A stretch of DNA of 64,000 nucleotides from a virus (Duplodnaviria; Caudoviricetes), in IMG/VR virus record IMGVR_UViG_3300017963_000281, positions 238-64,237 of that record. The stretch is one strand, 5' to 3'. The translations under genes and the position numbers were made by a program. Under the pieces are notes generated by a model. It did no database searches. It saw only the letters and a list, made by a program, of their open reading frames with translations, and was not told the origin of the DNA. This document shows positions 9,445 through 35,106 of this stretch, one piece after another (the stretch's first letter is position 1; every line of letters begins with the position of its first letter).

Positions 9445-9457
9445 TAGGAGGCCGTAA

Positions 9458-10429: not shown

Positions 10430-10464
10430 CGATTTGCTCTACAATATGGAGTTGGAGTCTGGGA

Positions 10465-16900: not shown

Positions 16901-19900
16901 TCCGGTGTCCAGATCCTAAACAACGGGAAGCTCCGTATGCACCCGATGGAACTAAAAATGGTTCCGTCCAATGTGGATACGAAGTTCATCAAAAAAGGCA
17001 CGCTAAAGCCACTATACAGTGGCTTCTTCCGGACGTTTATCAACGAATATTTCGATAACATGCCGAACGAGGAGCGAGAGAATTTTCGCAAGTCGATCGT
17101 CAAGGGTGTCGAGCGAACCTACAAGGCCGGCGCCCGCGGTCTTGTGATCAGCGGGGTGGGTAAATCCGATGACTATCGCATAAGCTCTGCATTGCGGAAG
17201 GCAAATAAGACAGTCGCCGCCCTAAACTTTAACCAGCAGTGTCCGATGTTCGTAATTGGCGGCCACGGGTGTTACCTGGACGGATGTTATGTCAGCGGTT
17301 TGGCGATGAACGGCCAGGGCGTCCAGTTCTACCGGTCTGCCATGTACCTGGGAGAGATCCTGCAGCTTCGCGAAGACCAGATCGCCATGCTCAATAATGT
17401 CGGTGGTCTCCGGATTAATGGTATGGGTGACACGCAAAAAGAGGACCTGGACCAATGGAGAGATGCCGTCAGGCATGCCCATATGCGAGGTCTCAAGCTG
17501 AAGATCATCACCAAGCAAGATGCGACCATGTGGATTATGGATAAGTTGGTCAAAGAAGGTGTCCCGGGCGCCAGGAAGATCGTCATTCAGCCGACAGTGG
17601 ATCCGTACTGGATCGAGGTCAAACACGATAATCTCCCGGGCAGCGCGGTTGACACTCTGCAGATCTACAAAGCGGCTGCCAGGGGCACGCAGGCCAGCCT
17701 GGAAGCCGCGGCTGATATGTACGCTGAAGCCGGCCGGGAGGCCAGGATATTCAACGGCAAGTTGTATCGCAAATATGGGTACTCCTGGGACCGGATTAAA
17801 GAGATCTCGAAGAAATACCCGCATCTCAAGATCCAGCCGCGCCTGGTGGTATCGACGCCTCTGGAGATCGCAGAGTCTGCTCTCAAAACGCCTAAGGCCA
17901 TTCAGACCTGGATGCATGCAGCCCTAAGGCCTGGGATGTATTCGGACATCGAGGGTGGAACCCTGGGTGAGGACGTCGAGGCGCTAAATTTTGACGGCCG
18001 GATCCGGGTGGACAAGATCAACGGAGAGTGGAGGCTGCTCGCCCAGGGGCCCAAGGGCGACATAATCGGTCACGAGGGTTATGCGTTCACCAAGACCGAA
18101 AAGTTTATCAAGGACAATTACACTCCCAGGCAGGCAGATAGAATCTTCCGTGTCCTCCAGGGGCAGCTCGAACAGACTCCCTCCGCGCTCTGCTGTCAGA
18201 TTGGAGCGTCCGCGGATGCGTGTAACGACTGTACATCTCACTGCCACCAGGGGTCCTGGCATACCGGCAAACGCCTGGCACGCATCGCCGAAGCTGGCGG
18301 GAAGATCATAACCAATGTCGTGAAGAACGCGACGATTTACAACCCAACCTGGAAGGCCTCGGTCAAAAGATCTAAATGGTACAGCCAGGCCGAACGGGTG
18401 CTCGACCAGAAGCTGCCGGGATCCGGTTCGCCGGCCAACATGCGTCAGGCGATCGAAGGCTACATCCGCAAGGGTGACGTCAAAGCCGAGGAGATTGAAT
18501 GGAGCGGTGTTCTGGACTGGATCGATGAATACCAGGAAATGAAGGAGCTCGAGTGGGCCGAAGCCCAAAAGGCCGAAGGTGAATTCTCCAAAGAGGAGGA
18601 CGAACTATACACCAAATACCTGGAGGGGATTCTCACCCATGAAGAGTCGACCAAGGCTATCGAGGACCTTAGGGCCCGAACCCGGAAAGAAGCCAAAAAG
18701 ATAAAGGCCAAAATCACCAAGGCCGAGGTCCTTGAATATTTCCGGCAGAACCAGACGGAGATCAAAGACGTTTTGTATGAAGAAGAGGCAGCCGGCGACG
18801 AGCGGATCCTGGTTGAGCCGGTCGACTTTCCGTCTCAAGGCGACTATATGGGTGTCGACGCGACCGAGGTCGAATACCAGCTGGAGGTCCTCAGGGACGA
18901 ATATCCGGATGAAGACGAGGATTACCTTGCCCAGCTGGCCCAGGAGAGAGCCGAGGAGAATGCCCAGTATGAATATACGGACAGTGAATATGGGTATCGG
19001 ATAATAGAGACGATGTTCATGGGCACCGGAGAGGATTATACGGTATATGATCCCGACCATAATATCATTGGCAACTTTGACAGTTGGGATGAGGCCGAAG
19101 ACCATGTCGAGAATCATGCTCTTGATAGGTTCGGTACCTGGGAAATTGAGGACGAGACCCATTACAGTCAATATAAGCTCGAGGGTGGCAAAAAATACGC
19201 CGAGCTGCTGATGGTGCTCCCAGACCAAAGAAAGGCCAAGATCGACAGGCTGATAAACCGAGTCAAAGAGCGGCTCGGCAAGCCTGATCTCTGGACAGAA
19301 TCCGTAATTCCTCAGATGACTCCAGCGGAGCTCAAGGAGTACGAGGCCCTGGTTGAGCAGCCGAGAAGAAAGGGCCGGTACGAAAGCAGCCATTGGCAAT
19401 CAGACCCCAACGTATTGGTCCATGTCAGGTACGACGATCGCGAAACATACGACGGCGAAAATATGCTTTTCATCGAGGAGATCCAGTCTGACTGGCACCA
19501 GGAAGGGCGCAAGGATGGGTACGCCAGCAAGCCTAAAATCCGGAGGGTTGGCAAGGTCAAGGTCTGGACCCAGAAGGATTTTAAAAAAGCTCATCGGTCG
19601 TGGCCTCTTGATAGTATGATGGACGTCCAGGACACTCCGATCGACTTGATGAAGGCTGCAACAGACGAGGAGCAGCAAAGGCTAACAGAGGCTATCGTTC
19701 ACAACCAGGGGAAGCTGTCCGATGACGCTCCGGTCTATACTGTCGTAGGCGATGACGGTAAAATTAAAATAGCGAACATGATCTCTCGGTCGCTGGCAGA
19801 GAAGGAGGCCAGAAAATATGAGATTGTTATCGATGAGGAAACCGGCGCCGTTGCCATCGGCAATATGGGCACCCATATCCGCTTTAAATCAAAAAAAGAA

Positions 19901-22900
19901 GCCAGGAATTGGTACTGGGATAAAGGCCCTGGGGCCCAGATGCTCCCGGATGCTCCGTTCAAGAAAGATTGGCCGCTGCTGGCCTTCAAGCGGATGATCC
20001 GACACGCCGTCGACAACAACTATGATTCGGTTGGGTGGACCACCGGGGGGCAGCAGGCGGATCGTTATAACCTCCGGAAATTTATATCGGCTTTGCACTG
20101 GAAAGTCGTAGGTAAAAACCCCGAGGACAATACATTCATCTATCAAATAAATGCCACGCGGGTTGACCAGGACGGCCGAGTGGAGGACTTTGGAACAAAA
20201 ACAGTCGACGAGCTCGTCGACCTGGTGGGTAAAGAGATGGCCGACCGGATCGTGCAGGCCTCCGGAAAGGGCCAGGTTACAAGGTATCACGGCCGGGTCA
20301 ACGAATACAAAGCCACATCAAATAAAGAGACCGAGGAACAGGCATGGGCGCAGCTCGAGAAGTGGAAGGTGAACAATAAATATACCCCTCACGATAAGTT
20401 TGATGTCAACACGGTCACGCTGCCGGCGCACGGGACGATCGATGGCGAAAATCTGGAGATCGGCGGAAGTGGCATGAAACAGTTCTATGACAAGATCCTG
20501 CCGAACGCCGTCAAAAGATACTTTGGCAAAAAGGCCTGGGGCAAGCCGAAGCTGAAGCCGGCAAAGATCTATACGGATCCCAATCCTCGATACCTGGTGG
20601 TAGGCCGCCGGTCCAGCGAGGACCCCTGGGGCGAATACTCGAGGTCCTATGCGACCGAGGGCACCGCCAAGGCCGAAATGACTTTCCTTAACAAATCCGA
20701 GGACGGATGGGAATTTAAGGTCATCCCGGATCCTGACCGGCTCGAAGAGATCTGGAGCATGGAGATCACTCCAGAAATGCGCGAAAAGGTGGCCAACGAA
20801 GGCCTCCCGCTGTTCTCCGTTAAGGCCGGCCCGATTTGGTACAGCCAGATGGCCGATGTTCTGGCCACCAAGCTGCCGAACAGGGGAACGCCTGAGCAGT
20901 TCGAGCGAACGATCAGGGCTTTCGCAGCCAAGGGCGAGTTCAAGGAAGAGGAGCTGCAGTGGTCAGGCCTGGAAGCCTGGCTCGATGAGCAGGATGCGAA
21001 GGCGAAGGTGTCCAGGCGGGACATCCTGACATACCTGAAGAGCAACAGCATCCGACTCCAGGAGACGCAGCACGCTGAGGCTGGTAAGATTTTTGGCTAT
21101 GGCATCAATGAGGTCGATAGGTCTGAAGAGTGGTATGTGGAACAGGGAGACGAGGAAGATGAGTGGTTTGTCATGGACGACGACGGCCAAATAATCACAA
21201 GGTTACCAAGCCTAAAAGAGGCAGAAGATTACATCGATGACGCTGAATTCGGGTACCAGGTCTATGATTTAGACTCCAGCGACGTAGTCCAAACCTTCGA
21301 AACCCGAGGTGGCGCCGAGTGGTTCATAGAGAATATGGGCGACGGTAGCCAGTGGTGGGATAGCGACAACCTACGAGAAGCGTCCGAAATCATAGAGCAG
21401 CTCGAGCATGATGGCTACGAGGTTCACGCAGAGCCCGACATCGAGACCGGAGAGCCGATCCCCAACAGGGTTACCTGGGATTCCGGATCGAAGGAGGTCG
21501 AATTCCCTATGATGTTGATCGAGGACGACGAGATCGACGCTCCGGATGAGGATATAGCTGCAATGCGCCGGCTGGATGAGTTGATCAGGATGGAGGGGTC
21601 TCGGGCGGCGTCATCGGCTAAATATCCAAGCTATGTCCAGCCTGGTGGTGAGAACTACCGTGAGCTGTTGCTGCAGATGCCTGAGATCATAACTCCCGAC
21701 ATGATGCGATCCATCATGCCGATGGAAAGCACGATGGTTGCTGATGGTACCGACGTCGAATTGATTGTCCGCGGCAAGGTGATGAACTGGCGCGATGCTA
21801 TCCGGGAATTCCTGGACGATTCTGAGATCAACGCAGACCTCCGCATCAAGACGCTTGAGAAACTCAGGGAGGATGTCGGCAACTGGCGCTGGAAACAGTT
21901 TATCAAGGACAACCTGGTTCCCCAGATCAGGGTGGCCGCCGGCGCCACAAGCGTTGGACCGGATCCTTTCCGAGTCAGCCACTGGGACGAGGACAATGTC
22001 CTGGCCCATGTACGCTTCGACGAGCGTCGTGATGCCGAGGGTGTCCGGACCCTGCATATCGCCGAGATCCAGAGCGACTGGCACCAGAAGGGGCGGAAGG
22101 AGGGATACAGGGACGAGTCCAATCAGGTCTTTAGAATAAAGTTTGCTAACGGTGACACCTACAATACGTTCGACACCAGAGAAGAGGCCGAAAAAGTTGT
22201 TGAATCCCTGAACAAGGATGAATCCTGGGAGCCGGGTCTGCGCGGCAGATTTTATGTCGACAAAGAGGCAGAGAATGCCAAAGGCGTCCCAGACGCTCCT
22301 TTCAAAAAGACCTGGCCCATCCTGGCCATCAAGCGCATGGTCCGTTTCGCAGCGGAGAACGGGTTCGATCAGATCACCTGGGATCCTGGCCAGGTCCAGG
22401 CCGACCGGTATGATCTATCAACAAGGATTTCGCGGATAGTCTGGCTCGAGCATGCCTCAACGCTCAAGGCCTATAATCATAGTGGCGAAGAGGTGATAAG
22501 CGAAATCTCCACGAGAGAGAAGCTGCCAGACTACATAGGGAAAGAGGCGGCCGACAAGTTGCTGTCGACAGAACCCAACGAGTTTAAATATGGCCCAACT
22601 CAGCGCAAGGGCGTTGAGTACATGCTCGAAGGCGAGGACATCAAGGTCGGGCACAAGGGAATGAAAGGCTTCTATGACAAGATCATGGTCAAAGAGGTCA
22701 ATAAATTCTTCAACAAACAGGCCTGGGGCAACGCCAAAGTCGCGGTCACCAAGATTGATACGACAACGACAAATCAGCTGACGGCGAAGCGGAGGTATGT
22801 CGGCCCTGAGTTGACGCCGGAGGAAATATTCGCCCTGGCCCGGACTGGTAATTTTAACGCGACGGTTACCGGGCAGCTGAATGGAATGGCCCACGACATC

Positions 22901-25900
22901 AACGCCGAGCTGACCTTCCAAGACGCTGCCGACAGAACGTCCGAGGCAACGGCCGAGGCCCTTGGCGGCCGGCTCGAGATGGTATCCTCTGAATCCGAGG
23001 TCTGGAGCCTGCCGATCACTCCGGAGATGAAAGCCCGGGCCCTACAGCAGGGTATGCCGATGTTCAGTGTCAAGAAAATGAACCCGGTTGCCCAGGACTA
23101 CCTGGAAGCGCTCCAGGCGGCATATCCGGCAGCGTTCGAGCCGGCGCCCTATGACATGGCTGAGGATCCGTTCGAGGACCTGGACGAGGAGATCCGGGAG
23201 CGCATGGAGGCGGCCAAGGGCATCCCGATGCCCAGGTTTGTCGATTGGCTCAAGACCCAGGGTAAGGAGATCTGGTGGTCAGCCCGCCGGCATCGTCCCT
23301 TCCTGGATCCCCAGGACCAGGCCGAGCTCGCCAACGTGCTCCGGATCCACCAGGAGGTCCCGGAAAATTCCAAACGCCGCGCTATGCAGGTCCTCCAGGC
23401 TCTGGTGGCCGGCATGAAGCCGAAACACTACGAGACCTTTACCATGGCCCTGGTGATGGACGACATGGTCAAGGATATCGATTCCGGACTGTTATCCGGC
23501 AAAGAGGAGCTGCCGTTCGGGTTCACCGAGCAGCAGGCCAGGGCCTATCGTCGCCGGATCAATGAGATGGTCAATTCCAGTCCGATTGTCAAGGACGCCC
23601 TCCGCCGGCGCCAGGCCTTTCAAAAGAAGCTGAAACAGGCCCTGGTGCGAGCGGATCTGCTTCCTGAAGCGGTCCTCGAGGATGATAGGTACTTCCACCA
23701 TCAGGTGCTCGAGTACAGGGCAGCTGAGGCGCTTGGTGAGGCCTACGGTGGCCTGGGAGTGTCCTCCAGAGACGTCAGGCTGAAACGGAAAGGGTGGCAG
23801 CGGGCCCGGACCGGATCCGTCAAAGACTATAATATCGATTATGCTGAGGCTGAATTCGAGGTCATCTCCCAGGGCCTGGCTCAGCTCGAGACCAAGGCGA
23901 CCATGGACCGGATCAAGGGCCTGGTCGACGAGACGCCCGGTCTTAAAATGCAGGCCAAGTCGCTGAATATCCAACATTTGTATGAGGAAGAGGCCAAGCG
24001 CCTTACCCAGACGGACCAGTCCGGCCACATCTGGACGGCTGCCGAGGTCCGGGAACAGCAGGACATCCTGTCACCGTTCAAACAGAAAATGGCCATGGGC
24101 CTCTCATGGCTCGGCCGGCTGGCCAGCAAGGGTGACCTGGGCGGCGGGTCTCAGGATTTCAGCGACGTGATCGAGACCCTCCAGGAATGGCAGCGCGAAA
24201 TCGCGATCGAAAAGCAGGAGGCCAAGGAGGACGGCCGCAAACCTTATCCGATACCTTTTCCGTTTGATGAGCTCGGGTCCAGATTCTGGGCCTTCCTGAA
24301 CCATGTTATGCGGGAGGACCTGGACGGGGCGCCGGCAGCCGGGACCATATTCAAGGCGATCCGGGAGCGCAACCAGTTCATTAAGGACTACCTGGGCGAT
24401 AAATTCCTTTCCGCGGTGGATCTCAAGCCGGCCGACCATGTACTCTGGAAGCCGGCGCCGGGATCCTCCTGGTACAAGGCCTGGACAATGACCGACAAGC
24501 TAATACAGGCCGTCCAGGAAGGTGAGCAGGTCATAGGCAAGGCCGAGCTTGAGAAGGCCCACCAGATCCTGGCCAGGGGTAAAGACGTCGAGTGGATCGT
24601 TCCGGCCGACGTCGCCAAAACCTTGGACGGCTATGACATAGTCCTCGAGGACCACAAGTTGAGCAAGGCCTCCAGGGCGATAATGACTGGGTGGAAACAA
24701 TGGATCTTGATCAATCCGTTTCGGGTGATCAAGTACAACCTTAACAATATGTCAGGCGACCTCGACATCGCGCTTGCCTATGATCCGAAGATTGCGCTTA
24801 AGTACATGCCGGCCGCAATTAAAGACCTCTGGTCTGACTTCCGGCTCAAAAAGCAGAGCCCGGAGCTCAAGGCCGAGATCGATCGGGCCTACACCCTGGG
24901 CGTCCTGGGGTCCGGATGGAGCGTCCAGGAGGTGGCCGATGTCAACAAGCAGCTGGCCTTCGACAAACAAATGGACGCTCTGCAGGGGATCAAGCCGAAT
25001 CTGATTAAGAGAGGGTGGCGGTCCCTATCGGCATACACCAGCTACCGCGAGAACATGCTGCGCCTGGCTTCTTACCGGTACTTTTTGGATGAGCTCAGGG
25101 CCGGGAAAGAGGTTTACGGCGCCAGCAATAAAAAAGAGGTAGACGGAATCGAGGACATCGAGGAGAAAGCCGCTAAGCTGTCCCGAGACCTGATCGGAGA
25201 TTATGGTAATATTACCCACGCCGGTCAGTGGCTGCGTCGGCATATGATTCCATTTTATGCCTGGATGGAGGTCAACGCGCCCAGGTACGTTCGCCTGATA
25301 CGAAACCTGCCTCACGAGGACAAGGGCCGCGGAAGGCTGGGCGGAGTGATAGCCGCAAAGGTCGCGTGGAAGGCTACTAAGCTGGGGCTTAAAATGAGCG
25401 CCATCTATGGCCTGGTAACGCTTTGGAACCATACCTTTTTCGGCGACGAGGAGGACGAGCTCGGCGAATCCCAGCGCCGGCAGCTGCACCTGATACTGGG
25501 CCGCCGGGATGATGGATCGATAATCACCCTAAGGGTCCAGGGCGCCCTGTCCGATGCCCTGGCCTGGTTCGGTGGCGAGGACCTGCCGAGCGACATCGGC
25601 GATGTCGTAAAAGGCAAGGTCTCGATATGGGAAAAGGCCAAAGAGGCCGCCCTGGCGCCGGTGATCAAGCTCATTGGCGGTGTCCGTCCCGACGTCAAGG
25701 CCTTTTCGGAGCTTCTGGGCGGTCGGACCTTTTATCCGGATCCGTTCAACCCAAGGCCTATCCGGGACAAACTTGAGCAGATCGCCAGGTCGTTTTCCCT
25801 CAATGGCGTTTATCGCTGGATCGCAGGGAAACCAAAGCGAGGTGACACCTGGAGCGCTCAGCTGGCCAACGATATTCTGGCACTCGGTACCTATACGTCC

Positions 25901-26380
25901 GATCCTGGCGAGTCGGCATATTACGACACGCTCGCGAGGGTTTATGATTTCATGGAAAAGAACGGCCGGGAGCGGGCCTCCGGAGTCCCAACGACCAGGT
26001 CCAACGCCCTGTATTATTACAAGCAGGCGCTAAAGTATGGCGATCTGAAGGCTGCCGAGAAATATCTCAAGAAATATTATGAGCTCGGTGGCATCGATAC
26101 CAACATCACCCAGAGCATCAAACGAGCCGCTCCCCTGGCGCCGTTGCCGGCGGATTGGCGAGGCCTGTTCCTCAGGTCCCTGACTCCGGATGAGCGGGCC
26201 CGGTATGACCTGGCCATGCGCTGGTATCGCCGCACCTATGTCCAGGGCCAGGGCAAGGTCAGCGTTGATCGATCCGAAATAAAACGGCCGCCGCGGATCC
26301 CGGTTATATCCCAGCCGGCCGGCGGAAAGAAACCTTTAACCCTGAGGCAAGCAGCCCAGCAAAAGAGAGGAGCTGAGTAA
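10916..26380 (+). CDS. Giant (5154 aa) polyvalent ejection protein: metallopeptidase, ART-like, acidic, GGDEF, Fe-S/GP88-like, 2x EIQSDW and LPD38-like domains
   Basis: Uninterrupted ORF; ATG at 10916 with GAGG RBS; domain motifs listed separately; last gene of the ejection cassette. Confidence 0.9.
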   Translation: MNELDRMWDAGTEVDQNWDPVGGGNTFDESGFQNWYQNWADKTGINPDPDDPLHKYDYRAAYSAGAEPQLADDGAYHWPSEHKADDHPNRFVDGMDTKTGTPAPMGGAGLVPDDLWEQGIDADQSFQPTGAAKAQQLEEMGTAGRLWEAGKAAGSQAITLFADILPGTIYRGLRGGDDELHETWLDRQISQNEAERERRRNLTPEEREVTAFRIPFTDIDVKFGDFEDIADNLGYSLGNAIAMAGTRAATGAVLSQIPYVGKVGQKIIAPTVGAVGATAFTARVSKDQFIDDLKKEWMKQHQGKLLTPELQQQWKEFYEQAASDATIYGLWEAVPETVSNMVGWGIVKMGSGKTAQMAVSGIKKRLTNKVGKMIAKKMGIPVAKLGAMWTEELITEMITTKKQSEIEHARGLRDKPLGWIEALKEVAPGVLLATPLMAAGFKGAQKVAEGASNLGVKEVSEDELVDLDDQRKPPPLPTAGAEEIAASPLVQKLKEDYSAGIVTDEDIAQMREGMDAKHPLYQALDTITGAEVAEGELQEEQLTEGQAKAEEALISAMRKQFPEGEIAAQVVGMPSSKDLQSVQSVGEALGVNIVVFRGEREADAFNGLYHEGTIFINENAERPYLTTLGHESWHKIETEHQDLAKQLIDSMKVEDLGFENYLNELNKSRVDKGLEEIGIDDALGMEELRADFVGEQFVRPEFWQKLSEKNPEAAKSLAQVVKDIIDKIRAYLQGQKAVPASAFKDLNGVQDALASVYTEFARREKGVVDETVQEVKTKKPSNVTKEAPSVTKEPSNVTKEAPSVTKEASNVTKEKPETKGPKPSLKEGGVKKVRPGLYRAKSGGVEYVVEKRPSDEYEKSKPWVLSEIVAGKTEPITRARTAKEAIAQIGMTPFPEKPDKSKFSVKSPEFKKWFKESKVVDETGKPLVVYHGTKDPYVTRFSHAMGGTGVVGAAKSGAFFFTSERDNAEYYADYTDLPDFSEYSEQEIDDLRESIQVYGEGNEWYNLVQDENGADIFNQGPFDTLDAAEEAAEKTLDGAGFTDQDPFVKEVYLSIQNPFETDDLKYRQADEIKKIKEKGYDGIIIRDVVDGLYESDIYIAFEPNQIKSSTGNVGTWDAGNEDIRFSLKGPDEDPVVIPEALEEFEDYEDAEPTYRGDELARAIKYLHALELKYSAYDYANPKDELVEKYQAETEDEINEKADEVIDVLNEVYDHWLERHESAEGWFNQFFDPDEELMLYSEPTMAFTDGEVGYIKAGNTWTVDVRDEVLKAVEEEHGMPGIPEDMDDVFEELEDYGEDVDDMRQQYEDGEIEEWDIKERLEQFRWEDYSYADKIIEPTSQSIGEALDANGWYSPIGQTIRQVLETKGYEAWRSNWGSELTDAEERIREQRDRLEGAESVREKMSAITWALNESHVYGTMSEHMDIWEKDLNEINELGDRIQKFEDILKDEYRFKPKQKEMPPLVQSSMFTRLGMTLPKFSVKQRKKFHEISKAMNAGFAPMPKRKKLTGGKRLGAVLKRIPEMTREQRQEAARIVYTDEFSADEKASLIEMIMEATDAIRMPSRGALVASVKRAKPRKVVAGFKSQAQISKEKLEKLQAKGDIDFEDQDVLNAVIALSDDKVSGFKEARVGDARMNTVVRAIEFVEQNEGVPAVYVEMDLKNLGGINSAFGHSEANKVFRTQADIVKKAMGALDADVDLFRHGGDEMSAVVVGADPATVDSAMTEAVDAIQRWASRTKAPAGKALTDIPHPKYKGDKSKAGVGIVFSTTEIHPGAVPEIVFQSADTVLEQRKVEGADEFLQQVREARTGASDRRQGPAERRAKEGAKEDRARDGAKARGVSEKQSKDKVGRFSVKKEDRPIRNYARIGRRRDDGKLMKDVEGRKARKMTKKEYREIKDRLKQEAETEAYFTSRNHPGNLAQRYSLKRSMIDDAEDRGLLNADGLRVADLAERWAEFDRLIKLGGAGRPQHNAYNINQQIKKIRGLRKKIEALEKESGVQILNNGKLRMHPMELKMVPSNVDTKFIKKGTLKPLYSGFFRTFINEYFDNMPNEERENFRKSIVKGVERTYKAGARGLVISGVGKSDDYRISSALRKANKTVAALNFNQQCPMFVIGGHGCYLDGCYVSGLAMNGQGVQFYRSAMYLGEILQLREDQIAMLNNVGGLRINGMGDTQKEDLDQWRDAVRHAHMRGLKLKIITKQDATMWIMDKLVKEGVPGARKIVIQPTVDPYWIEVKHDNLPGSAVDTLQIYKAAARGTQASLEAAADMYAEAGREARIFNGKLYRKYGYSWDRIKEISKKYPHLKIQPRLVVSTPLEIAESALKTPKAIQTWMHAALRPGMYSDIEGGTLGEDVEALNFDGRIRVDKINGEWRLLAQGPKGDIIGHEGYAFTKTEKFIKDNYTPRQADRIFRVLQGQLEQTPSALCCQIGASADACNDCTSHCHQGSWHTGKRLARIAEAGGKIITNVVKNATIYNPTWKASVKRSKWYSQAERVLDQKLPGSGSPANMRQAIEGYIRKGDVKAEEIEWSGVLDWIDEYQEMKELEWAEAQKAEGEFSKEEDELYTKYLEGILTHEESTKAIEDLRARTRKEAKKIKAKITKAEVLEYFRQNQTEIKDVLYEEEAAGDERILVEPVDFPSQGDYMGVDATEVEYQLEVLRDEYPDEDEDYLAQLAQERAEENAQYEYTDSEYGYRIIETMFMGTGEDYTVYDPDHNIIGNFDSWDEAEDHVENHALDRFGTWEIEDETHYSQYKLEGGKKYAELLMVLPDQRKAKIDRLINRVKERLGKPDLWTESVIPQMTPAELKEYEALVEQPRRKGRYESSHWQSDPNVLVHVRYDDRETYDGENMLFIEEIQSDWHQEGRKDGYASKPKIRRVGKVKVWTQKDFKKAHRSWPLDSMMDVQDTPIDLMKAATDEEQQRLTEAIVHNQGKLSDDAPVYTVVGDDGKIKIANMISRSLAEKEARKYEIVIDEETGAVAIGNMGTHIRFKSKKEARNWYWDKGPGAQMLPDAPFKKDWPLLAFKRMIRHAVDNNYDSVGWTTGGQQADRYNLRKFISALHWKVVGKNPEDNTFIYQINATRVDQDGRVEDFGTKTVDELVDLVGKEMADRIVQASGKGQVTRYHGRVNEYKATSNKETEEQAWAQLEKWKVNNKYTPHDKFDVNTVTLPAHGTIDGENLEIGGSGMKQFYDKILPNAVKRYFGKKAWGKPKLKPAKIYTDPNPRYLVVGRRSSEDPWGEYSRSYATEGTAKAEMTFLNKSEDGWEFKVIPDPDRLEEIWSMEITPEMREKVANEGLPLFSVKAGPIWYSQMADVLATKLPNRGTPEQFERTIRAFAAKGEFKEEELQWSGLEAWLDEQDAKAKVSRRDILTYLKSNSIRLQETQHAEAGKIFGYGINEVDRSEEWYVEQGDEEDEWFVMDDDGQIITRLPSLKEAEDYIDDAEFGYQVYDLDSSDVVQTFETRGGAEWFIENMGDGSQWWDSDNLREASEIIEQLEHDGYEVHAEPDIETGEPIPNRVTWDSGSKEVEFPMMLIEDDEIDAPDEDIAAMRRLDELIRMEGSRAASSAKYPSYVQPGGENYRELLLQMPEIITPDMMRSIMPMESTMVADGTDVELIVRGKVMNWRDAIREFLDDSEINADLRIKTLEKLREDVGNWRWKQFIKDNLVPQIRVAAGATSVGPDPFRVSHWDEDNVLAHVRFDERRDAEGVRTLHIAEIQSDWHQKGRKEGYRDESNQVFRIKFANGDTYNTFDTREEAEKVVESLNKDESWEPGLRGRFYVDKEAENAKGVPDAPFKKTWPILAIKRMVRFAAENGFDQITWDPGQVQADRYDLSTRISRIVWLEHASTLKAYNHSGEEVISEISTREKLPDYIGKEAADKLLSTEPNEFKYGPTQRKGVEYMLEGEDIKVGHKGMKGFYDKIMVKEVNKFFNKQAWGNAKVAVTKIDTTTTNQLTAKRRYVGPELTPEEIFALARTGNFNATVTGQLNGMAHDINAELTFQDAADRTSEATAEALGGRLEMVSSESEVWSLPITPEMKARALQQGMPMFSVKKMNPVAQDYLEALQAAYPAAFEPAPYDMAEDPFEDLDEEIRERMEAAKGIPMPRFVDWLKTQGKEIWWSARRHRPFLDPQDQAELANVLRIHQEVPENSKRRAMQVLQALVAGMKPKHYETFTMALVMDDMVKDIDSGLLSGKEELPFGFTEQQARAYRRRINEMVNSSPIVKDALRRRQAFQKKLKQALVRADLLPEAVLEDDRYFHHQVLEYRAAEALGEAYGGLGVSSRDVRLKRKGWQRARTGSVKDYNIDYAEAEFEVISQGLAQLETKATMDRIKGLVDETPGLKMQAKSLNIQHLYEEEAKRLTQTDQSGHIWTAAEVREQQDILSPFKQKMAMGLSWLGRLASKGDLGGGSQDFSDVIETLQEWQREIAIEKQEAKEDGRKPYPIPFPFDELGSRFWAFLNHVMREDLDGAPAAGTIFKAIRERNQFIKDYLGDKFLSAVDLKPADHVLWKPAPGSSWYKAWTMTDKLIQAVQEGEQVIGKAELEKAHQILARGKDVEWIVPADVAKTLDGYDIVLEDHKLSKASRAIMTGWKQWILINPFRVIKYNLNNMSGDLDIALAYDPKIALKYMPAAIKDLWSDFRLKKQSPELKAEIDRAYTLGVLGSGWSVQEVADVNKQLAFDKQMDALQGIKPNLIKRGWRSLSAYTSYRENMLRLASYRYFLDELRAGKEVYGASNKKEVDGIEDIEEKAAKLSRDLIGDYGNITHAGQWLRRHMIPFYAWMEVNAPRYVRLIRNLPHEDKGRGRLGGVIAAKVAWKATKLGLKMSAIYGLVTLWNHTFFGDEEDELGESQRRQLHLILGRRDDGSIITLRVQGALSDALAWFGGEDLPSDIGDVVKGKVSIWEKAKEAALAPVIKLIGGVRPDVKAFSELLGGRTFYPDPFNPRPIRDKLEQIARSFSLNGVYRWIAGKPKRGDTWSAQLANDILALGTYTSDPGESAYYDTLARVYDFMEKNGRERASGVPTTRSNALYYYKQALKYGDLKAAEKYLKKYYELGGIDTNITQSIKRAAPLAPLPADWRGLFLRSLTPDERARYDLAMRWYRRTYVQGQGKVSVDRSEIKRPPRIPVISQPAGGKKPLTLRQAAQQKRGAE
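12600..13200 (+). other. Zincin metallopeptidase (MPTase-like) domain of the giant protein
   Basis: NGLY...IFIN...TTLGHESWH (HExxH at 12803-12817) and downstream EELRAD; boundaries approximate. Confidence 0.8.
13253..13357 (+). repeat. Five tandem 21-bp coding repeats (PSNVTKE/APSVTKE linker)
   Basis: CCCTCAAACGTAACAAAAGAG alternating with GCTCCATCCGTAACAAAAGAG. Confidence 0.95.
13634..14287 (+). other. ADP-ribosyltransferase-like module (ART-PolyVal type)
   Basis: FKKWFKESKVVDETGKPLVVYHGT...FFFTS...AEYYA...VYLSIQNP...GYDGII...IAFEPNQIKS...GTWD..NEDIRFS. Confidence 0.85.
15632..16468 (+). other. GGDEF-type nucleotide cyclase module (GGDEM variant)
   Basis: EMDLKNLGGINSAFGHSEANKVF...LFRHGGDEMSAVV (GGDEM at 16022-16036)...GVGIVFS...VFQSADTVL. 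Confidence 0.85.
16305..16463 (+). CDS. Overprinted 52-aa basic helical protein in the +1 frame inside the giant ORF
   Basis: GGAGG 6 nt before ATG; hand-counted GC3 about 36/52 in the nested frame versus 18/53 in the giant frame; TAG just before the FSVK boundary. Confidence 0.6.
   Translation: MSSYSRLGRLGLVHLIDDKDQLKDALKKARKKIEREMERRRVAFQKNNPRIR
16694..18355 (+). other. Fe-S / radical-SAM-like (GP88-like) module
   Basis: Cx9Cx4C (CPMFVIGGHGCYLDGCY), LRINGMGD, KIITK and C-terminal CC...CNDCTSHC. Confidence 0.55.
18368..20812 (+). other. EIQSDW domain, copy 1
   Basis: WYSQ...EEIEWSG...YAELL...SHW...NVLVHVRYDDR...EEIQSDWHQ...PDAPFKK.W...QADRY...GMKQFYDKI...ITPEM. Confidence 0.8.
20825..23062 (+). 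other. EIQSDW domain, copy 2
   Basis: Same ordered motif blocks as copy 1 with different insertions. Confidence 0.8.
23075..26380 (+). other. C-terminal helical ejection core (LPD38-like)
   Basis: ENMLRLASY...AAKLSRDLIGDYG...MIPFYAW pattern typical of C-termini of large phage ejection proteins. Confidence 0.6.
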
Positions 26381-26842: not shown

Positions 26843-27178
26843 TTATTCGTATTTGGCAGCCACAGCATCGACGGACTTGACTACCGCGTAGGTGTCTATC
26901 AATATGTCGACGGGACCAACCCGCTTGCATGACGAGATCCTTTCCTTCCAATACCCAATGGATTGCGCGTGCTCTGCAGCTTCCTTGCGGCCCAATCCGG
27001 CAGCCTCCAGGAACATAGCAGCCTTAGCTTTGTAGAGGGTATCGATCGAGTAAAAAGATTTTGTCCCTAAGCCATTGGCCGGAATGTCCGCCTCAATGAA
27101 ACCTCTTTCCATCCGATCTCGAAACGCGGTGAACTTCATCCCCAATATATCGGCTGCCTGAAAACTCGAGTACATCAT
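26843..27178 (-). CDS. MerR-like HTH DNA-binding protein
   Basis: YSSFQAADILGM...DRMERGFI...GTKSFYSIDTL. Confidence 0.75.
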   Translation of the reverse strand: MMYSSFQAADILGMKFTAFRDRMERGFIEADIPANGLGTKSFYSIDTLYKAKAAMFLEAAGLGRKEAAEHAQSIGYWKERISSCKRVGPVDILIDTYAVVKSVDAVAAKYE

Positions 27179-27582
27179 GGCAACAACTCCTTAGGGTATT
27201 GAGGTGCCCAATGGTTCGCCGGCCGCCTCTGGTTGTAGTCGATTATCCTGGTGGGCTCATTGTTGTAATAGTTAGCGCCCGGATTAATGACGTTGTTATT
27301 GATGATGATTTGAGCCGGCTGCCGCTGAGTATATCTATACAGCTCAGGGCTGCCGGCTCGGAAGGCGATGTCCATCCAGGTGGCCAGGGCATGATTATTG
27401 CCGCATCTGGCGGCTCGGAGGCCAGCCTGGCGGACATCGTTCGGAGATCCATAACGCCAGGTCGACAGGTCGCCGGCGCTGGCGTCATGGGTAAAGAGAA
27501 AGAATGCTATAGACGCGATCAGGACGAGCTCCAAAATCGCGATCAAAAAAGCACCTCTAATACAGTTTTTGATTCTCATCAC
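27175..27582 (-). CDS. Exported or membrane-anchored protein carrying the TWRYGSP motif
   Basis: Basic N-terminus, hydrophobic core, A-S-A cleavage-like site; GGAGGTG RBS. Confidence 0.75.
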   Translation of the reverse strand: MMRIKNCIRGAFLIAILELVLIASIAFFLFTHDASAGDLSTWRYGSPNDVRQAGLRAARCGNNHALATWMDIAFRAGSPELYRYTQRQPAQIIINNNVINPGANYYNNEPTRIIDYNQRRPANHWAPQYPKELLP

Positions 27583-27824
27583 TCACCTCCATTGTAAAAG
27601 TCAATAGCTTGTTGGATGGATCCGAAAAACTTACCACCGATGCACCCGCCTCCAAACTTGTAGTCGTCCTCGTCGATGTAGTGGCCGACGCAGACCTTTT
27701 GGGGGCCGTCCCTATTCTCGAGGTCGAGGCCATCCGCCGATGTCATCAGCAAAAACTCCCCATCGTCACCGGCAGCGCATAGGCCCCAGGTCCCGGGCTC
27801 TACTAAAATGTCATGCCAATCCAT
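27579..27824 (-). CDS. Hypothetical acidic protein (81 aa)
   Basis: GAGGAGGTG RBS before ATG at 27824. Confidence 0.7.
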   Translation of the reverse strand: MDWHDILVEPGTWGLCAAGDDGEFLLMTSADGLDLENRDGPQKVCVGHYIDEDDYKFGGGCIGGKFFGSIQQAIDFYNGGE

Positions 27825-27829
27825 GATAT

Positions 27830-28003
27830 TCACCTCCTCTTTGGCCGGCCTGGCTTCCGGTCCCGGACCAGGTCGAGGTCCTTTTCCCGGATCCATAGAT
27901 CTCGGCCGTGGCGTTTCGCCGGCAGTCGCTTTTCCAGGATCAGCTGCCGCACCCTCGATGCGGAGATCCCCAGGAGCTTCCCGGCCTCTTTTGTTGTCAG
28001 CAC
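27830..28003 (-). CDS. Excisionase-family (HTH_17) DNA-binding protein, 57 aa (not in ORF track)
   Basis: Hand translation (V)LTTKEAGKLLGISASRVRQLILEKRLPAKRHGRDLWIREKDLDLVRDRKPGRPKRR; GTG start with upstream AAGGAGG. Confidence 0.8.
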   Translation of the reverse strand: MLTTKEAGKLLGISASRVRQLILEKRLPAKRHGRDLWIREKDLDLVRDRKPGRPKRR

Positions 28004-28275
28004 TTTTCATTCGCCTCCTTTCTACTTGGAAACGGGTGGCCTTCGTACTCTTCAAGAAGGTATCCGTTTTTGATCATAGCCCGGGCGAACATCTCGCAAC
28101 AATGATTGGTGCAAAAATTCCACTGTCCTTCAACATACCCATAGGTCCGGCCACGATTCTTGCCATTTTCGTCCTGGCCGATACCAACCACAGTTGCTGT
28201 CGCCCTGCCGCACCACTTACAGGTATTATCTTTATTTGTCCTCCGCAAGTACTTGTGAGGGCTCGTTCTCGGCAT
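27997..28275 (-). CDS. Hypothetical Zn-binding protein
   Basis: CKWC and FCTNHC; GGAGGT RBS. Confidence 0.65.
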   Translation of the reverse strand: MPRTSPHKYLRRTNKDNTCKWCGRATATVVGIGQDENGKNRGRTYGYVEGQWNFCTNHCCEMFARAMIKNGYLLEEYEGHPFPSRKEANEKC

Positions 28276-31195: not shown

Positions 31196-31627
31196 TTAAA
31201 ACGGAATGTCATCGTCTGGACCACCTGGTGGCTGGAATCCGCTGTCGTCGTACTCGCTTCTTTGCTGCCGGCCACCAGACGATCCTCCTCCTGGGGCCGA
31301 ACCAAGGAACCGGATGTCCGATGCGATGATCTTGGTGGTCCACCGGTCGTTACCGTTGTTGTCTTGCCACTTATCGGTCTGCAGCTTTCCCTCGACGTAA
31401 ACCTGTCGGCCCTTGGTCAGGTATTCGCCGCAAATCTCAGCCAGCCGGCGCCAGGCCGTAACCCGATGCCACTCGGTTCGCTCTTTTTTTTCTCCGGTGT
31501 TTTTGTCTTTCCACTGCTCTGAGGTTGCGATGCTTAAGCTGGCGACCGCATCTCCTCCCGGGGTGTAGCGCATCTCGGGGTCCGCTCCCAGGTTACCGAT
31601 AATTATCACTTTGTTAATGCTTGCCAT
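31196..31627 (-). CDS. ssb: Single-stranded DNA-binding protein
   Basis: [19 protein letters not shown]...TEWHRV...VYVEGKLQT; acidic DDDIPF tail. Confidence 0.97.
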
Positions 31628-31702
31628 TGTTTTTTCACCTTCCTTTCTTTTAAGATTTTTGGATAACGTGATGATGAGCGGCGGCGTTAGCCGTCCGACT
31701 CC

Positions 31703-32230
31703 TTATAGACCCTTACTTTCGAGCATCATCTTGAGGATCTGTTCTTTTGACAGCATCTGCAGGGTGTCGACATACTTACGCTGCCATTTTTTGATATCAT
31801 CCTCAAGGGACCTGATTTTGCTTTCCAGAGATCTGGATTTTTCAATCTCCTTGTCGAGCTCGCCCTCCAGGTCCTTAACCTCTGCACGCAACCGCTCCTT
31901 TTCGCCCCAGCCGCGGCGATCGGTTGCATTAAGGTGGACGACGTTTGTTTTCTCGTGGCGGGGCTTATTGAACGGCTTAGCCTTGGAGCGGTCTTTGGTA
32001 TAGGAGATCTTGTTGCTTCCTGGGTCCAGGCGCCCCATGCGCCAAATCAGATCTTCTTTGGCAAGTTCCTTAAGCGCCATTCTGACGTACTGCTTTGAGT
32101 AGTCGACCTTTTCGGCCACGTCGTCGATATCAAAGATGTCATTGGGTAGCGATTCCAAAACCTCCCAAACTCTTTCTTTGAAGTTCATCGCAGCCTGCTC
32201 TTTTGTCATAGTTCTCTGCGAGTCTGTCAT
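31703..32230 (-). CDS. Winged-HTH plus coiled-coil protein
   Basis: IDDVAEKVDYSKQYVRMALKEL; GGAGG RBS before MTDSQ. Confidence 0.65.
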   Translation of the reverse strand: MTDSQRTMTKEQAAMNFKERVWEVLESLPNDIFDIDDVAEKVDYSKQYVRMALKELAKEDLIWRMGRLDPGSNKISYTKDRSKAKPFNKPRHEKTNVVHLNATDRRGWGEKERLRAEVKDLEGELDKEIEKSRSLESKIRSLEDDIKKWQRKYVDTLQMLSKEQILKMMLESKGL

Positions 32231-33918
32231 GATGCCTCCTTCCATGTTTTTACCTTTGTGGATACCCTCTGCCGGTGGGTCCTCGGACCGCTTATGCCGT
32301 CGATTTTAGTATACTGCCTGGTTGTTAGTGGATAATTCGCCCGGATGTACTGGAAACACTGGTTAAGCTCGCTCAGTGTCATATCAGCCCTGGGCTTGCC
32401 CATGGCCCTTCTTATCTCTCCATTTATGCGCCCGTTGCGATACCGATGCATAAAACTATAGGCCCTAACGTGGGCCTCAACCTTCTCCCGGATACTGGTC
32501 TCGAGTTCGCTGGGCGTCGGATCTGCGACCGGCATTGACGGAGCTATAGCCATTTTGGGATCCGGCCCGAGGAAGGCCTCTCGGTTGCCGAGCAGGGATG
32601 ATGCCAGCGGAATGATGCCGCGCCGGCCAGGTTCCTCTCCGCCGCCCTCATCGCCAAATAGCTCCATCTGCTCGCCCTGGCGATAGTCCGTAATGTGCCC
32701 GACCTGCTCAGCTTCGATCTGGTCGACGATCTTTCGCATTATCGGATCATCTGGGCACCATACATAGGCACGCTGGTCCTCCCAGGCGCCGGCCAGGTGG
32801 TCAACCCGGACCGCCCGGGCGAGCATCTGCTCGATCCAGGGCTTGGATCGGATATGCGTCAAGCTGACCAGGTGGGTGACCGAAGGGACGTCCAGGCCTT
32901 CATATGCCATGGCGATCGTCACCAGGATATCGAACCCACCCTTTTTGAATCGTTTTATGGCATCGTGAGCCGCCTTGGACTCATGACTGGTGGCGATCTC
33001 CGCCCGGTAACATTTCTTTTTGAGGTATGCGACCGCTCGCCTGGCCGTCTCGATGCCTGACGTCACGACCAGCATTTTAGATCGACGATTGAGCGTTTTG
33101 TAGTCTGACCAGTGGAATAGAGCCTGGTCCAGCAGCTGCTCTGCGTAATCTGTCGTCAGGGCGGTATAGACAGCTGCAGAGGCGTCATCCATCTTGACTT
33201 TGGCCATCGAGTCGTATTCGATCGTATCACCAATCTCTGTCATCCATTTTACGCTTGCATCGGCGAAACTAAACACCAGCGGAATGATGGCTTTCTCGGA
33301 CAGGGCGTCGGTCCTGGTGTATCGTATAACGCGGAGTCCGATCTGGTCGTTGGATTGGATGACCGGCATTTTCTTGCCATGCTGGGTGAGGTATGGCAAA
33401 AAGGCGATCTGCGTCCCATCCCCGCGCTCCAGGGTCCCTGTCATCAGAACGACATAGGCTGCTCGCTTCACGAGCTTGGCCAGGGCATCATGCCATGGCG
33501 TGCCTTCGCCGGCATGGTGGAACTCATCCAGAACCAGGACGTACCGCCGCTTCTTGAAGTCCTTTAACAGGGTCTGCTGCTCATCGATGCCGATGGCCTG
33601 GTACGTTGTGATGCAACCTTCGAGGCCGCGGCAGGGATCTTTATCGTTTGTGCTGGATCGGATCCTCTTTTTGTGACCGAACATATCCCGGAAGAAGGGA
33701 TCCATGAAGTTTCCCTCGCCCTGGGATTGCAGCGACTTCCGAGGGACAACCCAGCAAAGTTTATTTGCCTGGCCGGCATCCAGCAGCCGGCTGGCGATAA
33801 TGGGCAGCGCCGATTTGCCACCGCCCGGGGTAACCGACGCCAGAATATATTCGATGGGACGGCCGGCGATGATATCGTCGACGGCGCGTTCCATATGTAC
33901 TTGGTGCTTACGTTTCAT
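32227..33918 (-). CDS. Superfamily 2 (DExH, ResIII-like) helicase
   Basis: TPGGGKS, LDEFHH, MTGT, EGLDVP, QMLARAVR. Confidence 0.9.
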   Translation of the reverse strand: MKRKHQVHMERAVDDIIAGRPIEYILASVTPGGGKSALPIIASRLLDAGQANKLCWVVPRKSLQSQGEGNFMDPFFRDMFGHKKRIRSSTNDKDPCRGLEGCITTYQAIGIDEQQTLLKDFKKRRYVLVLDEFHHAGEGTPWHDALAKLVKRAAYVVLMTGTLERGDGTQIAFLPYLTQHGKKMPVIQSNDQIGLRVIRYTRTDALSEKAIIPLVFSFADASVKWMTEIGDTIEYDSMAKVKMDDASAAVYTALTTDYAEQLLDQALFHWSDYKTLNRRSKMLVVTSGIETARRAVAYLKKKCYRAEIATSHESKAAHDAIKRFKKGGFDILVTIAMAYEGLDVPSVTHLVSLTHIRSKPWIEQMLARAVRVDHLAGAWEDQRAYVWCPDDPIMRKIVDQIEAEQVGHITDYRQGEQMELFGDEGGGEEPGRRGIIPLASSLLGNREAFLGPDPKMAIAPSMPVADPTPSELETSIREKVEAHVRAYSFMHRYRNGRINGEIRRAMGKPRADMTLSELNQCFQYIRANYPLTTRQYTKIDGISGPRTHRQRVSTKVKTWKEAS

Positions 33919-33922
33919 ATTT

Positions 33923-34105
33923 TTAACCCTCTACGACTTCAACGCGCTCTTGGCTCGTGTCCTCTTCGCACTCGACCATTCCAAAGCCGACCCATTCGTA
34001 TAGTTGGCCTTCGATAACAAACTGCTTATTCAACAGCTGGTCCGAGTTGCAGAACGTAAGCCTTTTTAATTCGGAGAGCCTCATCGATTTGTGTTTAGCT
34101 TTCAT
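33923..34105 (-). CDS. Hypothetical protein (60 aa)
   Basis: Fits the operon packing. Confidence 0.55.
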   Translation of the reverse strand: MKAKHKSMRLSELKRLTFCNSDQLLNKQFVIEGQLYEWVGFGMVECEEDTSQERVEVVEG

Positions 34106-34277
34106 GTCTCAGGTCCTTATATAGCCTGGCGACCTTGACCTTCCGGATCCGGCTGCCATGCCGATATGTCACCTCCAGCTTTCCCTTCTGGCGCCCACGC
34201 CTGATCTCCCGGATCGAGAACACCGGGCGGAACCCATTGCCTATCCATGCGATACCTGCTGCCTGTACTTTAGCCAT
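34095..34277 (-). CDS. Small basic hypothetical protein (60 aa)
   Basis: TAAGGAGGT RBS before MAKVQ. Confidence 0.7.
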   Translation of the reverse strand: MAKVQAAGIAWIGNGFRPVFSIREIRRGRQKGKLEVTYRHGSRIRKVKVARLYKDLRHES

Positions 34278-34310
34278 GATAACCTCCTTATTTGATTGGA
34301 TTTCATGGCT

Positions 34311-34319
34311 ATTATACCA
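34311..34319 (-). promoter_or_regulatory. Extended -10 promoter element
   Basis: TGGTATAAT about 35 nt upstream of the ATG at 34277; no consensus -35. Confidence 0.6.
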
Positions 34320-34475
34320 AACGGGGTTTACGAAAACCCGCGGTTGGCGGCGATTTAGGCGGTTTTGCTGGCGTAACTTGTTGATATTATTGTTGTGCAT
34401 TTTTTCCTTGACATAGAACCCATGCGGGTTGACGAGGACGATTTTGGACCATTGGCCTCCGTGAATCCTTTATCC

Positions 34476-34529
34476 AAAGGTGCCACCAACCCTTAAAATA
34501 AATTATCTATAAGGGTTGGTGGCACCTTT
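34476..34529. repeat. Perfect 20-bp inverted repeat with 14-nt AT-rich spacer
   Basis: AAAGGTGCCACCAACCCTTA ... TAAGGGTTGGTGGCACCTTT. Confidence 0.9.
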
Positions 34530-34877
34530 TGGTTCCAGTTTAGGCTCGAATCCGGTTAGGTCCCAGTAATCGTGCAGGTCGTCGTCGATTCGCCCTCCCA
34601 GCTGGTGGCAATAACCCAGGGCTTCGAGGTTCAGGAACATCTCCCCGCACCACTCGCACATATACCAGTCAGCCATTTGGACCTCATCGCCCCAGATCCG
34701 CTCCTCGATGTCGTTGCACGGATCCCGGATTCGGGTGAACTGCAAGCATGGTGTCTCCCAGTCGATTAGCTTCCCGCAGCTGCAGCACCGCTTCCGCCTG
34801 GTTGTATTGAGGACTGTAAAGTCCTCGGGCGGGATATAGTACCATTCTCCGTCGTCGAAACATCCACAACTAAGCAT
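34503..34877 (-). CDS. Cys-rich Zn-finger phage protein
   Basis: LSCGC, RKRCCSCG, MCEWC; GGAGG RBS. Confidence 0.7.
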   Translation of the reverse strand: MLSCGCFDDGEWYYIPPEDFTVLNTTRRKRCCSCGKLIDWETPCLQFTRIRDPCNDIEERIWGDEVQMADWYMCEWCGEMFLNLEALGYCHQLGGRIDDDLHDYWDLTGFEPKLEPKGATNPYR

Positions 34878-34887
34878 ATGATCCTCC

Positions 34888-35106
34888 CTAATCCGACAGA
34901 TATTTGATGGCTGCGTCCAGGGCGTCGCCGTACCCGGCGCCGATCCCCTGGTACAAGTCCGCCTGCATTTCGTCGGGCAGGCGCCTATAGCAGCTGTAAC
35001 ACAACGATTTGAGCCGCTTCTTGGGCCGTCCACAGAAGCACTCCTCAGATTTCAGTTGCTCAATTAACTCTTTAACTGTTGCGCGGTTTTTGGTTTCGCT
35101 GGGCAT
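34888..35106 (-). CDS. Small Zn-finger protein
   Basis: CFCG...LCYSCYRRLP. Confidence 0.7.
   Translation of the reverse strand: MPSETKNRATVKELIEQLKSEECFCGRPKKRLKSLCYSCYRRLPDEMQADLYQGIGAGYGDALDAAIKYLSD

Follow-up and report, generated by a model that had tools for sequence, protein, structure and literature searches.

Phage proteins that keep other phages out of an infected cell are known in several forms. T4 Sp and Imm are entry-blocking exclusion proteins, and Ltp of Streptococcus phage TP-J34 and Llp of T5 are reportedly small exported or surface proteins that stop the entry of related phages, Ltp being said to target the tape measure protein. To our knowledge, none of Sp, Imm, Ltp, and Llp copies a linear motif of a protein of the incoming phage; more generally, the entry blockers that we know of are folded membrane proteins, lipoproteins, or DNA binders, and none of them copies a short peptide of the ejection machinery. 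The TolB boxes of colicins, which are of the DGSGW type, compete with Pal. The disordered N-terminal arm of colicin A reportedly holds a conserved stretch of about 12 residues, through which it binds the periplasmic protein TolB (PMC2821528). In P22, the inner-membrane exclusion protein SieA blocks DNA delivery, and since escape mutations map to the ejection proteins gp16 and gp20, the ejection conduit is its target (PMC10883804). A bacterial example is HxsA of the HXS defense, a processed periplasmic protein which arrests phage DNA entry (PMC13128918); periplasmic gatekeeping is therefore a real mode of defense, chromosome-encoded proteins included. The locus compared with these systems here lies in a window of 64,000 nucleotides, bases 238-64237 of the 64,237-bp record IMGVR_UViG_3300017963_000281 of IMG/VR, a virus of the Caudoviricetes whose record has direct terminal repeats and is estimated to be 100% complete. 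Two unrelated proteins of this phage, a small protein predicted to be exported and a larger protein designated P0002, carry the same conserved module: T-W-R-Y-G, followed by a helix that starts from S-P-x-D-[IV]-R. The features concerned are the following:

27175-27579, minus strand: gene of the small, predicted exported protein, an open reading frame (ORF) of 134 aa from the ATG at 27579
27475-27579, minus strand: putative N-terminal export signal (MRIKNCIR, a hydrophobic run of about 21 residues, THDASA)
27424-27462, minus strand: first motif copy, TWRYGSPNDVRQA, at or near the predicted mature N-terminus of the small protein
27325-27378, minus strand: second conserved block, WMDIAFRAGSPELYRYTQ, the best conserved in the small protein, from the family alignment
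8548-9444, plus strand: P0002, 298 aa, putative ejection or internal virion protein, from its ORF and synteny
8836-8874, plus strand: second motif copy, TWRYGSPADIRKA, inside the predicted disordered N-terminal arm of P0002
8932-9351, plus strand: C-terminal domain of P0002, residues 129-268, modeled by AlphaFold2 (AF2) with a predicted local distance difference test (pLDDT) of 91-98

The small protein resembles SieA in being a phage-encoded envelope protein for which an entry block is proposed here. SieA is a prophage-expressed integral inner-membrane protein, and has no reported motif in common with its targets, whereas the small protein is predicted to be exported or anchored by a single pass, carries the motif of a presumed ejection protein, and belongs to a phage without a detected integrase. 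HxsA depends on two radical S-adenosylmethionine maturases and combines a peptidoglycan-binding domain with HxS repeats, electrostatic DNA binding being its proposed mode of action; such partners, domains, and repeats are absent here. Ltp and Llp are lipoproteins that bind their target or receptor as folded domains, unlike the small protein, which has no lipobox. The arm of P0002 with its embedded peptide finds its closest likeness in the translocation domains of colicins (the TolB box and the TolA/TonB-binding epitopes), from which it differs in sequence and in its carrier, a protein of a phage virion module and not a toxin. Like the podovirus ejection proteins T7 gp14/15/16 and P22 gp7/20/16, P0002 is small and helical and lies in a conserved run that ends in a very large protein; no sequence match and no significant fold match to these proteins was found.

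The two motif copies are identical in 10 of 13 residues and in 29 of 39 nucleotides, with five synonymous differences at identical residues, a pattern that argues for purifying selection on the peptide and against a recent copy of the DNA. The shared motif with its synonymous codon differences, and the dissimilarity of the two proteins elsewhere, had been reported in a preliminary description of this DNA made from the sequence alone, and both observations are borne out. BLASTP of the small protein against P0002 gives a single significant high-scoring segment pair (29.6 bits, E 1e-5 for the one comparison), all others having E>5, and when all six frames of the 64,237-bp record are searched with the small protein, only the protein itself and the motif site of P0002 (E 1.1e-4) come up. 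When the family profiles are compared with each other, 21 columns align with 57% identity (E 3e-4, probability 40%), a similarity that takes in AG-x-D ahead of the motif and A..AA behind it. Across deep divergence, T, W, [YF], G, S, P, [DN], and [RK] are nearly invariant in both families while the flanks decay, and in both AF2 models a predicted helix begins at the Ser-Pro of the motif. A shared 7-mer in a proteome of about 20,000 residues would not be very rare by a rough, uncomputed estimate. Chance resemblance of two short peptides is nevertheless effectively refuted by the conservation of the motif in both families; the three E-values just given and the complete lack of matches to the reversed pattern in this genome likewise speak against it.

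The strict back-translated DNA pattern of the motif had no match in IMG/VR and two in the GTDB genomes, one on the contig of a metagenome-assembled genome (MAG) described below; the other, in Streptomyces, reads TWRYGWPADVR in a frame with nearby stops and was discarded as chance. A looser DNA pattern for W-x-[YF]-G-x-P gave 11 matches in 31 phage records, four of which are the real motif: two in this genome and one each in the relatives G001 and G006. The remaining seven, as far as they were read, spell other residues; one of them, in G018, gives WNFGSP outside its P0002 homologue. No paper was found by a full-text literature search with the motif string.

Positions 27175-27582 on the minus strand translate as VMRIKNCIRGAFLIAILELVLIASIAFFLFTHDASA-GDLSTWRYGSPNDVRQAGLRAA, and positions 8548-9444 on the plus strand as ...GAGMDTWRYGSPADIRKAKYAA. 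The reading of the small gene in the preliminary description holds as to the ORF and not as to the start. An ATG at 27579 is preceded by a GGAGG Shine-Dalgarno site with a 6-nucleotide spacer and overlaps the stop of the upstream gene as TGATG, and is for these reasons taken as the true start; P0001 denotes the 135-aa reading from the GTG at 27582. Export signals were judged by sequence inspection. A basic n-region, a hydrophobic run, and a small-x-small site one to four residues before the motif are present in 17 of the 18 aligned members, and five extra family members show the same layout by reading. Many members have textbook signal peptides, e.g., MKRSALIFLMILITGIAYA followed directly by DTWRYGSP, and in the 17 members with such a signal the region of cleavage never contains a lipobox Cys. 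The hydrophobic run of this phage's copy extends over about 21 residues and includes one Glu, and this copy may be a signal anchor instead of a cleaved signal peptide. The earlier claim of a signal peptide with ASA agrees with the Sec-type N-termini of the family. The hydrophobic segment is longer in the window copy and its two closest relatives, and P0005 has in addition a CxxC..CxxC extension ahead of it; these three may be membrane-anchored with the same outward orientation. Because the motif directly follows the N-terminal export signal, it is predicted to be displayed on the periplasmic side, at the processed N-terminus or within about four residues of it.

The AF2 model of the small protein has a mean pLDDT of 57, too low for fold comparison, and consists of short helices from both Ser-Pro sites, the remainder being disordered; residues 2-34 form one helix, and a further helix at residues 47-60 starts from the motif Ser-Pro with low confidence. 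No match was obtained against Pfam, PHROGs, PADLOC models, or PDB sequences, and nothing usable in the ESM Atlas (best score 0.79). Spanin, antiholin, and other lysis roles were set aside: there is no lipobox and no coiled coil, and no lysis genes were recognized beside the gene.

Homologues of the small protein are rare: a search of 5.8 billion proteins gave 17. When 1.84 billion representatives were searched exhaustively with a profile, the result was ten clusters at 50% identity, all of 94-190 aa, and hence no fused forms. The sole match outside the family in that search, a repetitive glycosyltransferase-like protein of 3084 aa (E 9.8e-4), was judged spurious, and of three longer candidates sharing words with the motif region none reached E<=10. 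The motif, in the form TW[RA][YF]GSP[GNS]D[VIF]R, is present in 22 of 23 small-protein clusters, the exception (P0020) having a different N-terminus; apart from P0077 (TWAYGSP), all motif-bearing small proteins have the TWR[YF]GSP form. Among 18 aligned sequences, T, G, D, and R are invariant, and conservation reaches at least 90% for W, R, S, and P. Conservation extends to the WMDIAFRAGSPELYRYTQ block, in which M70, R75, A76, G77, S78, P79, L81, Y82, R83, Y84, and T85 are invariant, and to a C-terminal YPxALVP. By eye, the second block (AFRAGSPELYRY) resembles the shared motif (TWRYGSPNDVRQ) and might be a diverged repeat of it, both having the pattern aromatic-R-x-G-S-P-x-x-x-R, or [WF]RxGSPxxxR.

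P0002 has 55 homologues. The conserved core of the family, ENPNVRRMTLREALQGYGTGLE, lies within a confidently modeled helical hairpin; in the C-terminal domain as a whole, this hairpin, which includes a long helix, is predicted to have a beta strand on either side. Residues 1-100 are modeled with a pLDDT of only 48-64 and form an arm that varies in length and composition among members, with a helix at residues 103-114 starting from the Ser-Pro. The motif is present in 23 of 56 clusters of the family, or in 24 of 57 when a prophage copy, P0076, is counted, the more distant half of the family being without it; its conservation in homologues, foreseen as a test in the preliminary description, is thus seen on both sides. 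Two types occur: G[AS]GMD-TWRYGSP-x-[DN]-[IVL]-[RK], to which the subclade of this phage belongs (GMDTWRYGSP), and ND[WY]-TW[AQE]YGSP-S-D-F. In the 24 motif-bearing members, core positions are at least 90% conserved and flanking positions 20-50%. As an island of conservation in variable sequence predicted to be disordered, the motif in the P0002 arm has the character of a short linear motif.

Comparison of P0002 with Pfam, PHROG, PADLOC, and PDB sequences gave no match. Foldseek returned nothing at E<=0.001 from PDB and BFVD, and VIA returned only generic helical hairpins (Z<=8.0). One family member has a weak match to Inj_translocase (E 0.042), and weak leads from the Atlas point to clusters in which 22% of the members have P22_gp7 or 13% have T7_gp14. 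The surroundings of the gene are as follows:

6292-10429, plus strand: gene run without annotation
6712-8546, plus strand: two conserved genes of the module (449 aa and 166 aa) that precede P0002, no family match
9458-10429, plus strand: 323-aa gene between P0002 and the giant ORF, by synteny in 31 loci, no family match
10417-10959, plus strand: DUF5662 gene (E 6.3e-28)
10784-26380, plus strand: giant ORF of a putative polyvalent protein, 5198 aa as listed, which ends the module

The order of a gene of about 450 aa, one of about 170 aa, a P0002 family member, one of about 320-460 aa, and the giant ORF is conserved in 31 IMG/VR loci; in 17 of these the giant ORF has at least 800 aa and runs off the end of the locus. 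In this phage, Pfam domains of the giant ORF are ART-PolyVal (aa 965-1159, E 2.2e-17) and GGDEF (aa 1694-1839, E 3.8e-6), and its second half has a region matching the endolysin-type phrog_7348. Several disparate enzymatic domains in one ORF among virion genes mark it, by its sequence, as a polyvalent protein. The DUF5662 gene overlaps the listed TTG start of the giant gene, whose true start therefore probably lies downstream, at an internal ATG around 10916-10934. A GGDEF domain, of the diguanylate-cyclase type, is unusual for a presumably injected phage protein. Polyvalent proteins are a class predicted to be packaged and injected with the DNA (PMC5512222), and the P0002 gene lies two genes upstream of this one. 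The earlier designation of P0002 as a putative ejection protein is therefore reasonable but unproven: it agrees with the conserved gene order ending in the polyvalent giant ORF, and beyond the weak leads above no homology to T7 or P22 ejection proteins was detected.

If the module is a short linear interaction motif, P0002, once ejected, would use it to engage an envelope partner during DNA entry, either a periplasmic or membrane factor of the host or another ejected protein. The exported small protein would present the same motif in the periplasm and compete for this partner, so that DNA entry conduits of incoming phages that share the motif type would fail. When phage-encoded, such a protein would act in superinfection exclusion during infection; when chromosome-encoded, it would be a captured anti-phage defense gene. 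A competitive periplasmic decoy of this kind is our best reading of the locus, and a tentative one. The fuller version, in which both the phage and a bacterial lineage mimic an ejection protein, the processed N-terminus copying the arm motif, saturating the partner, and blocking phages with the same motif, and in which the arm acts as a colicin-like epitope, is possible and should be regarded as doubtful. The patchy distribution of the small gene and its chromosomal capture fit a gene involved in conflict; the additional conserved blocks of the small family and the unproven ejection of P0002 keep our confidence in the decoy low.

A number of findings weigh against the decoy. The putative place of P0002 in the virion and its putative ejection come from gene order only, and apart from the one Inj_translocase match given above, none of the 56 family members matches the Pfam families of T7 gp14-16 or P22 gp7/16/20 at E<=1. 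The strongest conservation in the small family lies outside the shared motif, in the WMDIAFRAGSPELYRYTQ block and the C-terminal YPxALVP, which suggests that the small protein does more than show a decoy peptide, and no PADLOC defense model or PHROG matches it. The two motif copies occur together in one genome only. A profile search of 30 related IMG/VR records, ten of them at least 90% complete, found the small protein in none, its sole match being the motif inside the larger protein of G001, and scans of IMG/VR with single proteins and with the small-family alignment likewise found no relative of the small protein. In the complete relatives G001 and G006 the larger protein has TWAYGSP, and neither the small protein nor another motif copy is present. 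Among five complete relatives (G001, G002, G005, G006, and G011) no second ORF shares any motif with the P0002 homologue, and a self-similarity test gave only Gly-rich low-complexity matches in the relatives, as compared with E 0.001 for the positive control, this genome. The small protein is thus not a regular companion of the motif-bearing larger protein, and the coupling that the preliminary description had offered as a check is not seen. The only hint of co-variation lies in the motif type: the small family is almost entirely TWR, like the P0002 subclade of this phage, P0077 being its one TWA member. Genomic contexts were read for this phage and the four contigs described below, about 17 other small-protein clusters lying outside this set. 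Finally, the decoy is read from the sequences of an uncultured phage and an uncultured host.

Homologues in a bacterial chromosome had not been foreseen. Metagenome and GTDB scans revealed four contigs that encode the small protein (L035-L038), including one from a Desulfobacterales MAG (G031), with a DUF192 gene upstream and a carbamoyltransferase, a small membrane protein, and a GDSL lipase downstream; no phage genes were found near the small gene on any of the four. G031 is the only carrier in samples of 23, 301, and 401 genomes from, respectively, its GTDB family, order, and phylum, and it contains no P0002-type gene. The DUF192 gene is kept in 12 of the 23 family genomes, with no small gene beside it in the eight loci examined, and in three relatives the carbamoyltransferase pair is retained where the small gene is absent. 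By this comparison the bacterial small gene appears as a lineage-specific insertion in one Desulfobacterales MAG lineage. Its G+C content (0.55) is the same as in the DUF192 flank and in the phage, so that the copy is not marked as foreign and transfer could have gone either way. This, too, counts against the decoy: the gene may be native to the bacterium and serve a purpose that has nothing to do with phages. Upstream of the bacterial small gene on L038 there is a 19-nucleotide tandem duplication (1974-2011), and an AT-rich inverted pair of 23 nucleotides, 78% complementary (1884-1906 and 3064-3086), brackets the gene. As ends of a mobile element these repeats are unconvincing; they may be due to chance.

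Several other explanations have to be set against the competitive decoy. Both proteins might carry the same module for the same partner and dock on one envelope structure, such as peptidoglycan, a membrane complex, or a chaperone, with no exclusion involved; the small protein would then have a job of its own, e.g., in envelope remodeling, lysis timing, or shielding progeny from debris, and competition would be incidental or absent. This explanation, which we consider a serious rival on the unlikely side, would account for the strongly conserved blocks beyond the motif, for a chromosomal copy that lies without phage genes near envelope or polysaccharide genes (DUF192, carbamoyltransferase, GDSL lipase), and for the lack of a match to any defense or exclusion family. 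A housekeeping role, however, fits poorly with a gene found in 1 of 23, 1 of 301, and 1 of 401 genomes and in none of 30 related phages, and a spanin-type lipobox or coiled coil is missing. Alternatively, the module may have a common descent and no shared partner, a fragment of the arm having been recombined onto a signal peptide, or the reverse, with unrelated function since; P0002 might then serve in assembly or structure without ever entering the periplasm. The similarity over about 21 columns, with AG-x-D and A..AA, indeed points to homology and not to convergence, and the role given to P0002 comes from gene order only. Yet near-invariance of the same residues in both families, with flanks decaying around them, is what unchanged binding specificity would predict, and we hold the loss of a common partner to be unlikely.

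Mimicry might also run the other way. The small protein would originally have been a bacterial periplasmic protein whose epitope the phage arm imitates to hijack the partner, and this phage would have captured the host gene. The chromosomal copies, with a G+C content like that of their flank (0.55 versus 0.51-0.53) and in a non-phage context, are consistent with such a course, and colicin TolB boxes provide a precedent for disordered arms of an invader that bind a periplasmic protein (PMC2821528). In the phage family, however, the motif is far more common, at 23 of 56 clusters, than is the small protein among bacteria, and the hosts of motif-bearing relatives (G332 and four MAGs) as well as the orthologous loci in relatives lack the small protein. 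When T-W-x-[YF]-G-S-P-x-[DN] was searched for in four MAGs, including the probable prophage host G332, it was found only in the small gene and the prophage copy; since no other protein there has the pattern, the phage motif is unlikely to imitate a conserved host protein. We consider reverse mimicry improbable. In a further alternative, the motif and its helix would be a self-association element, and the exported protein would co-assemble with incoming P0002 as a dominant-negative subunit. An amphipathic helix directly after the motif is predicted in both models, and as nothing else speaks for such direct poisoning, it is very improbable.

A lead to the host comes from P0076, a relative of P0002 with a motif of the ND-W-TWAYGSP type, encoded on a 138-kb contig of a Desulfatibacillum MAG (G332:C3; L042, L052, L053). 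A terminase gene at about 23-24.5 kb of this contig encodes a protein 53% identical to that of the window; phage genes extend from the contig end to about 43 kb, cellular genes such as that for aconitase lie beyond, and an integrase-family match at about 43 kb scores 26.8 bits, under the cut-off of 27.1. The phage relative on this contig is probably a prophage and provides a lead both to the host and to a temperate relative. Another P0002 relative lies in a Desulfobacterales MAG, and this group of sediment phages probably infects Desulfobacterota.

Should the competitive decoy prove true, exclusion and defense genes could be recognized from sequence by a signature, namely a small exported product with a linear motif in common with a virion protein; a functional epitope would be identified on an otherwise opaque class of ejection-module proteins, and a handle would be gained on the envelope factor used for DNA entry by sediment phages. 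If the decoy is wrong, the shared conserved module would still mark a common envelope interaction.

The rest of the genome provides the setting of the small gene. Its other recognized features are:

26765-26738, minus strand: intrinsic terminator (12-bp stem with 9 G-C pairs, then T7), closing the minus-strand unit
26843-27178, minus strand: 111-aa gene, the last of the minus-strand unit, overlapping the stop of the small-protein gene by 4 nucleotides
27579-27824, minus strand: 81-aa gene directly upstream of the small-protein gene and translationally coupled to it
27830-28003, minus strand: 57-aa HTH_17 (excisionase-type) DNA-binding gene (E 5.3e-10), inside a listed 158-aa ORF (27579-28055)
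31196-31627, minus strand: single-stranded DNA-binding protein (SSB)
32227-33918, minus strand: helicase
35254-37782, minus strand: SbcC-like protein
38269-39489, minus strand: SbcD-like protein
49230-50783, plus strand: terminase
52286-54478, plus strand: portal
55879-57201, plus strand: major head protein
1019-6292, plus strand: 1757-aa protein with four Laminin_G_3 stretches and DUF2341

The minus-strand block 40690-26843, which includes the SbcCD-like genes, the helicase, and the SSB, closes with the strong terminator; positions 31196-39489 on this strand form a replication and recombination block. Because the listed 158-aa ORF overlaps the real HTH_17 gene, the ATG at 27824 is the likely start of the 81-aa gene. 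The 111-aa gene has no family match. No tyrosine or serine recombinase (PF00589, PF00239) was found in the complete record bounded by direct terminal repeats, the controls being positive, and no lysogeny genes were seen in this phage; the idea of a resident phage guarding its host, as first put forward, is for this reason doubtful. INPHARED holds no close relative, by DNA or by protein. The sequencing runs that match the phage are two DNA runs, from a sediment and a seawater metagenome, from which the record may have come; no RNA run is among those listed, which speaks neither for nor against exclusion. In the relative G011 (67,682 bp), two P0002-family genes that are 83% identical lie at the ends of a record described as linear (2-778 and 66654-67499, both on the minus strand); the pair could reflect diverged terminal redundancy or an assembly of two strains. 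The 1757-aa protein of the window, to judge from its Laminin_G_3 and DUF2341 domains, is probably a host-recognition fiber or adhesin.

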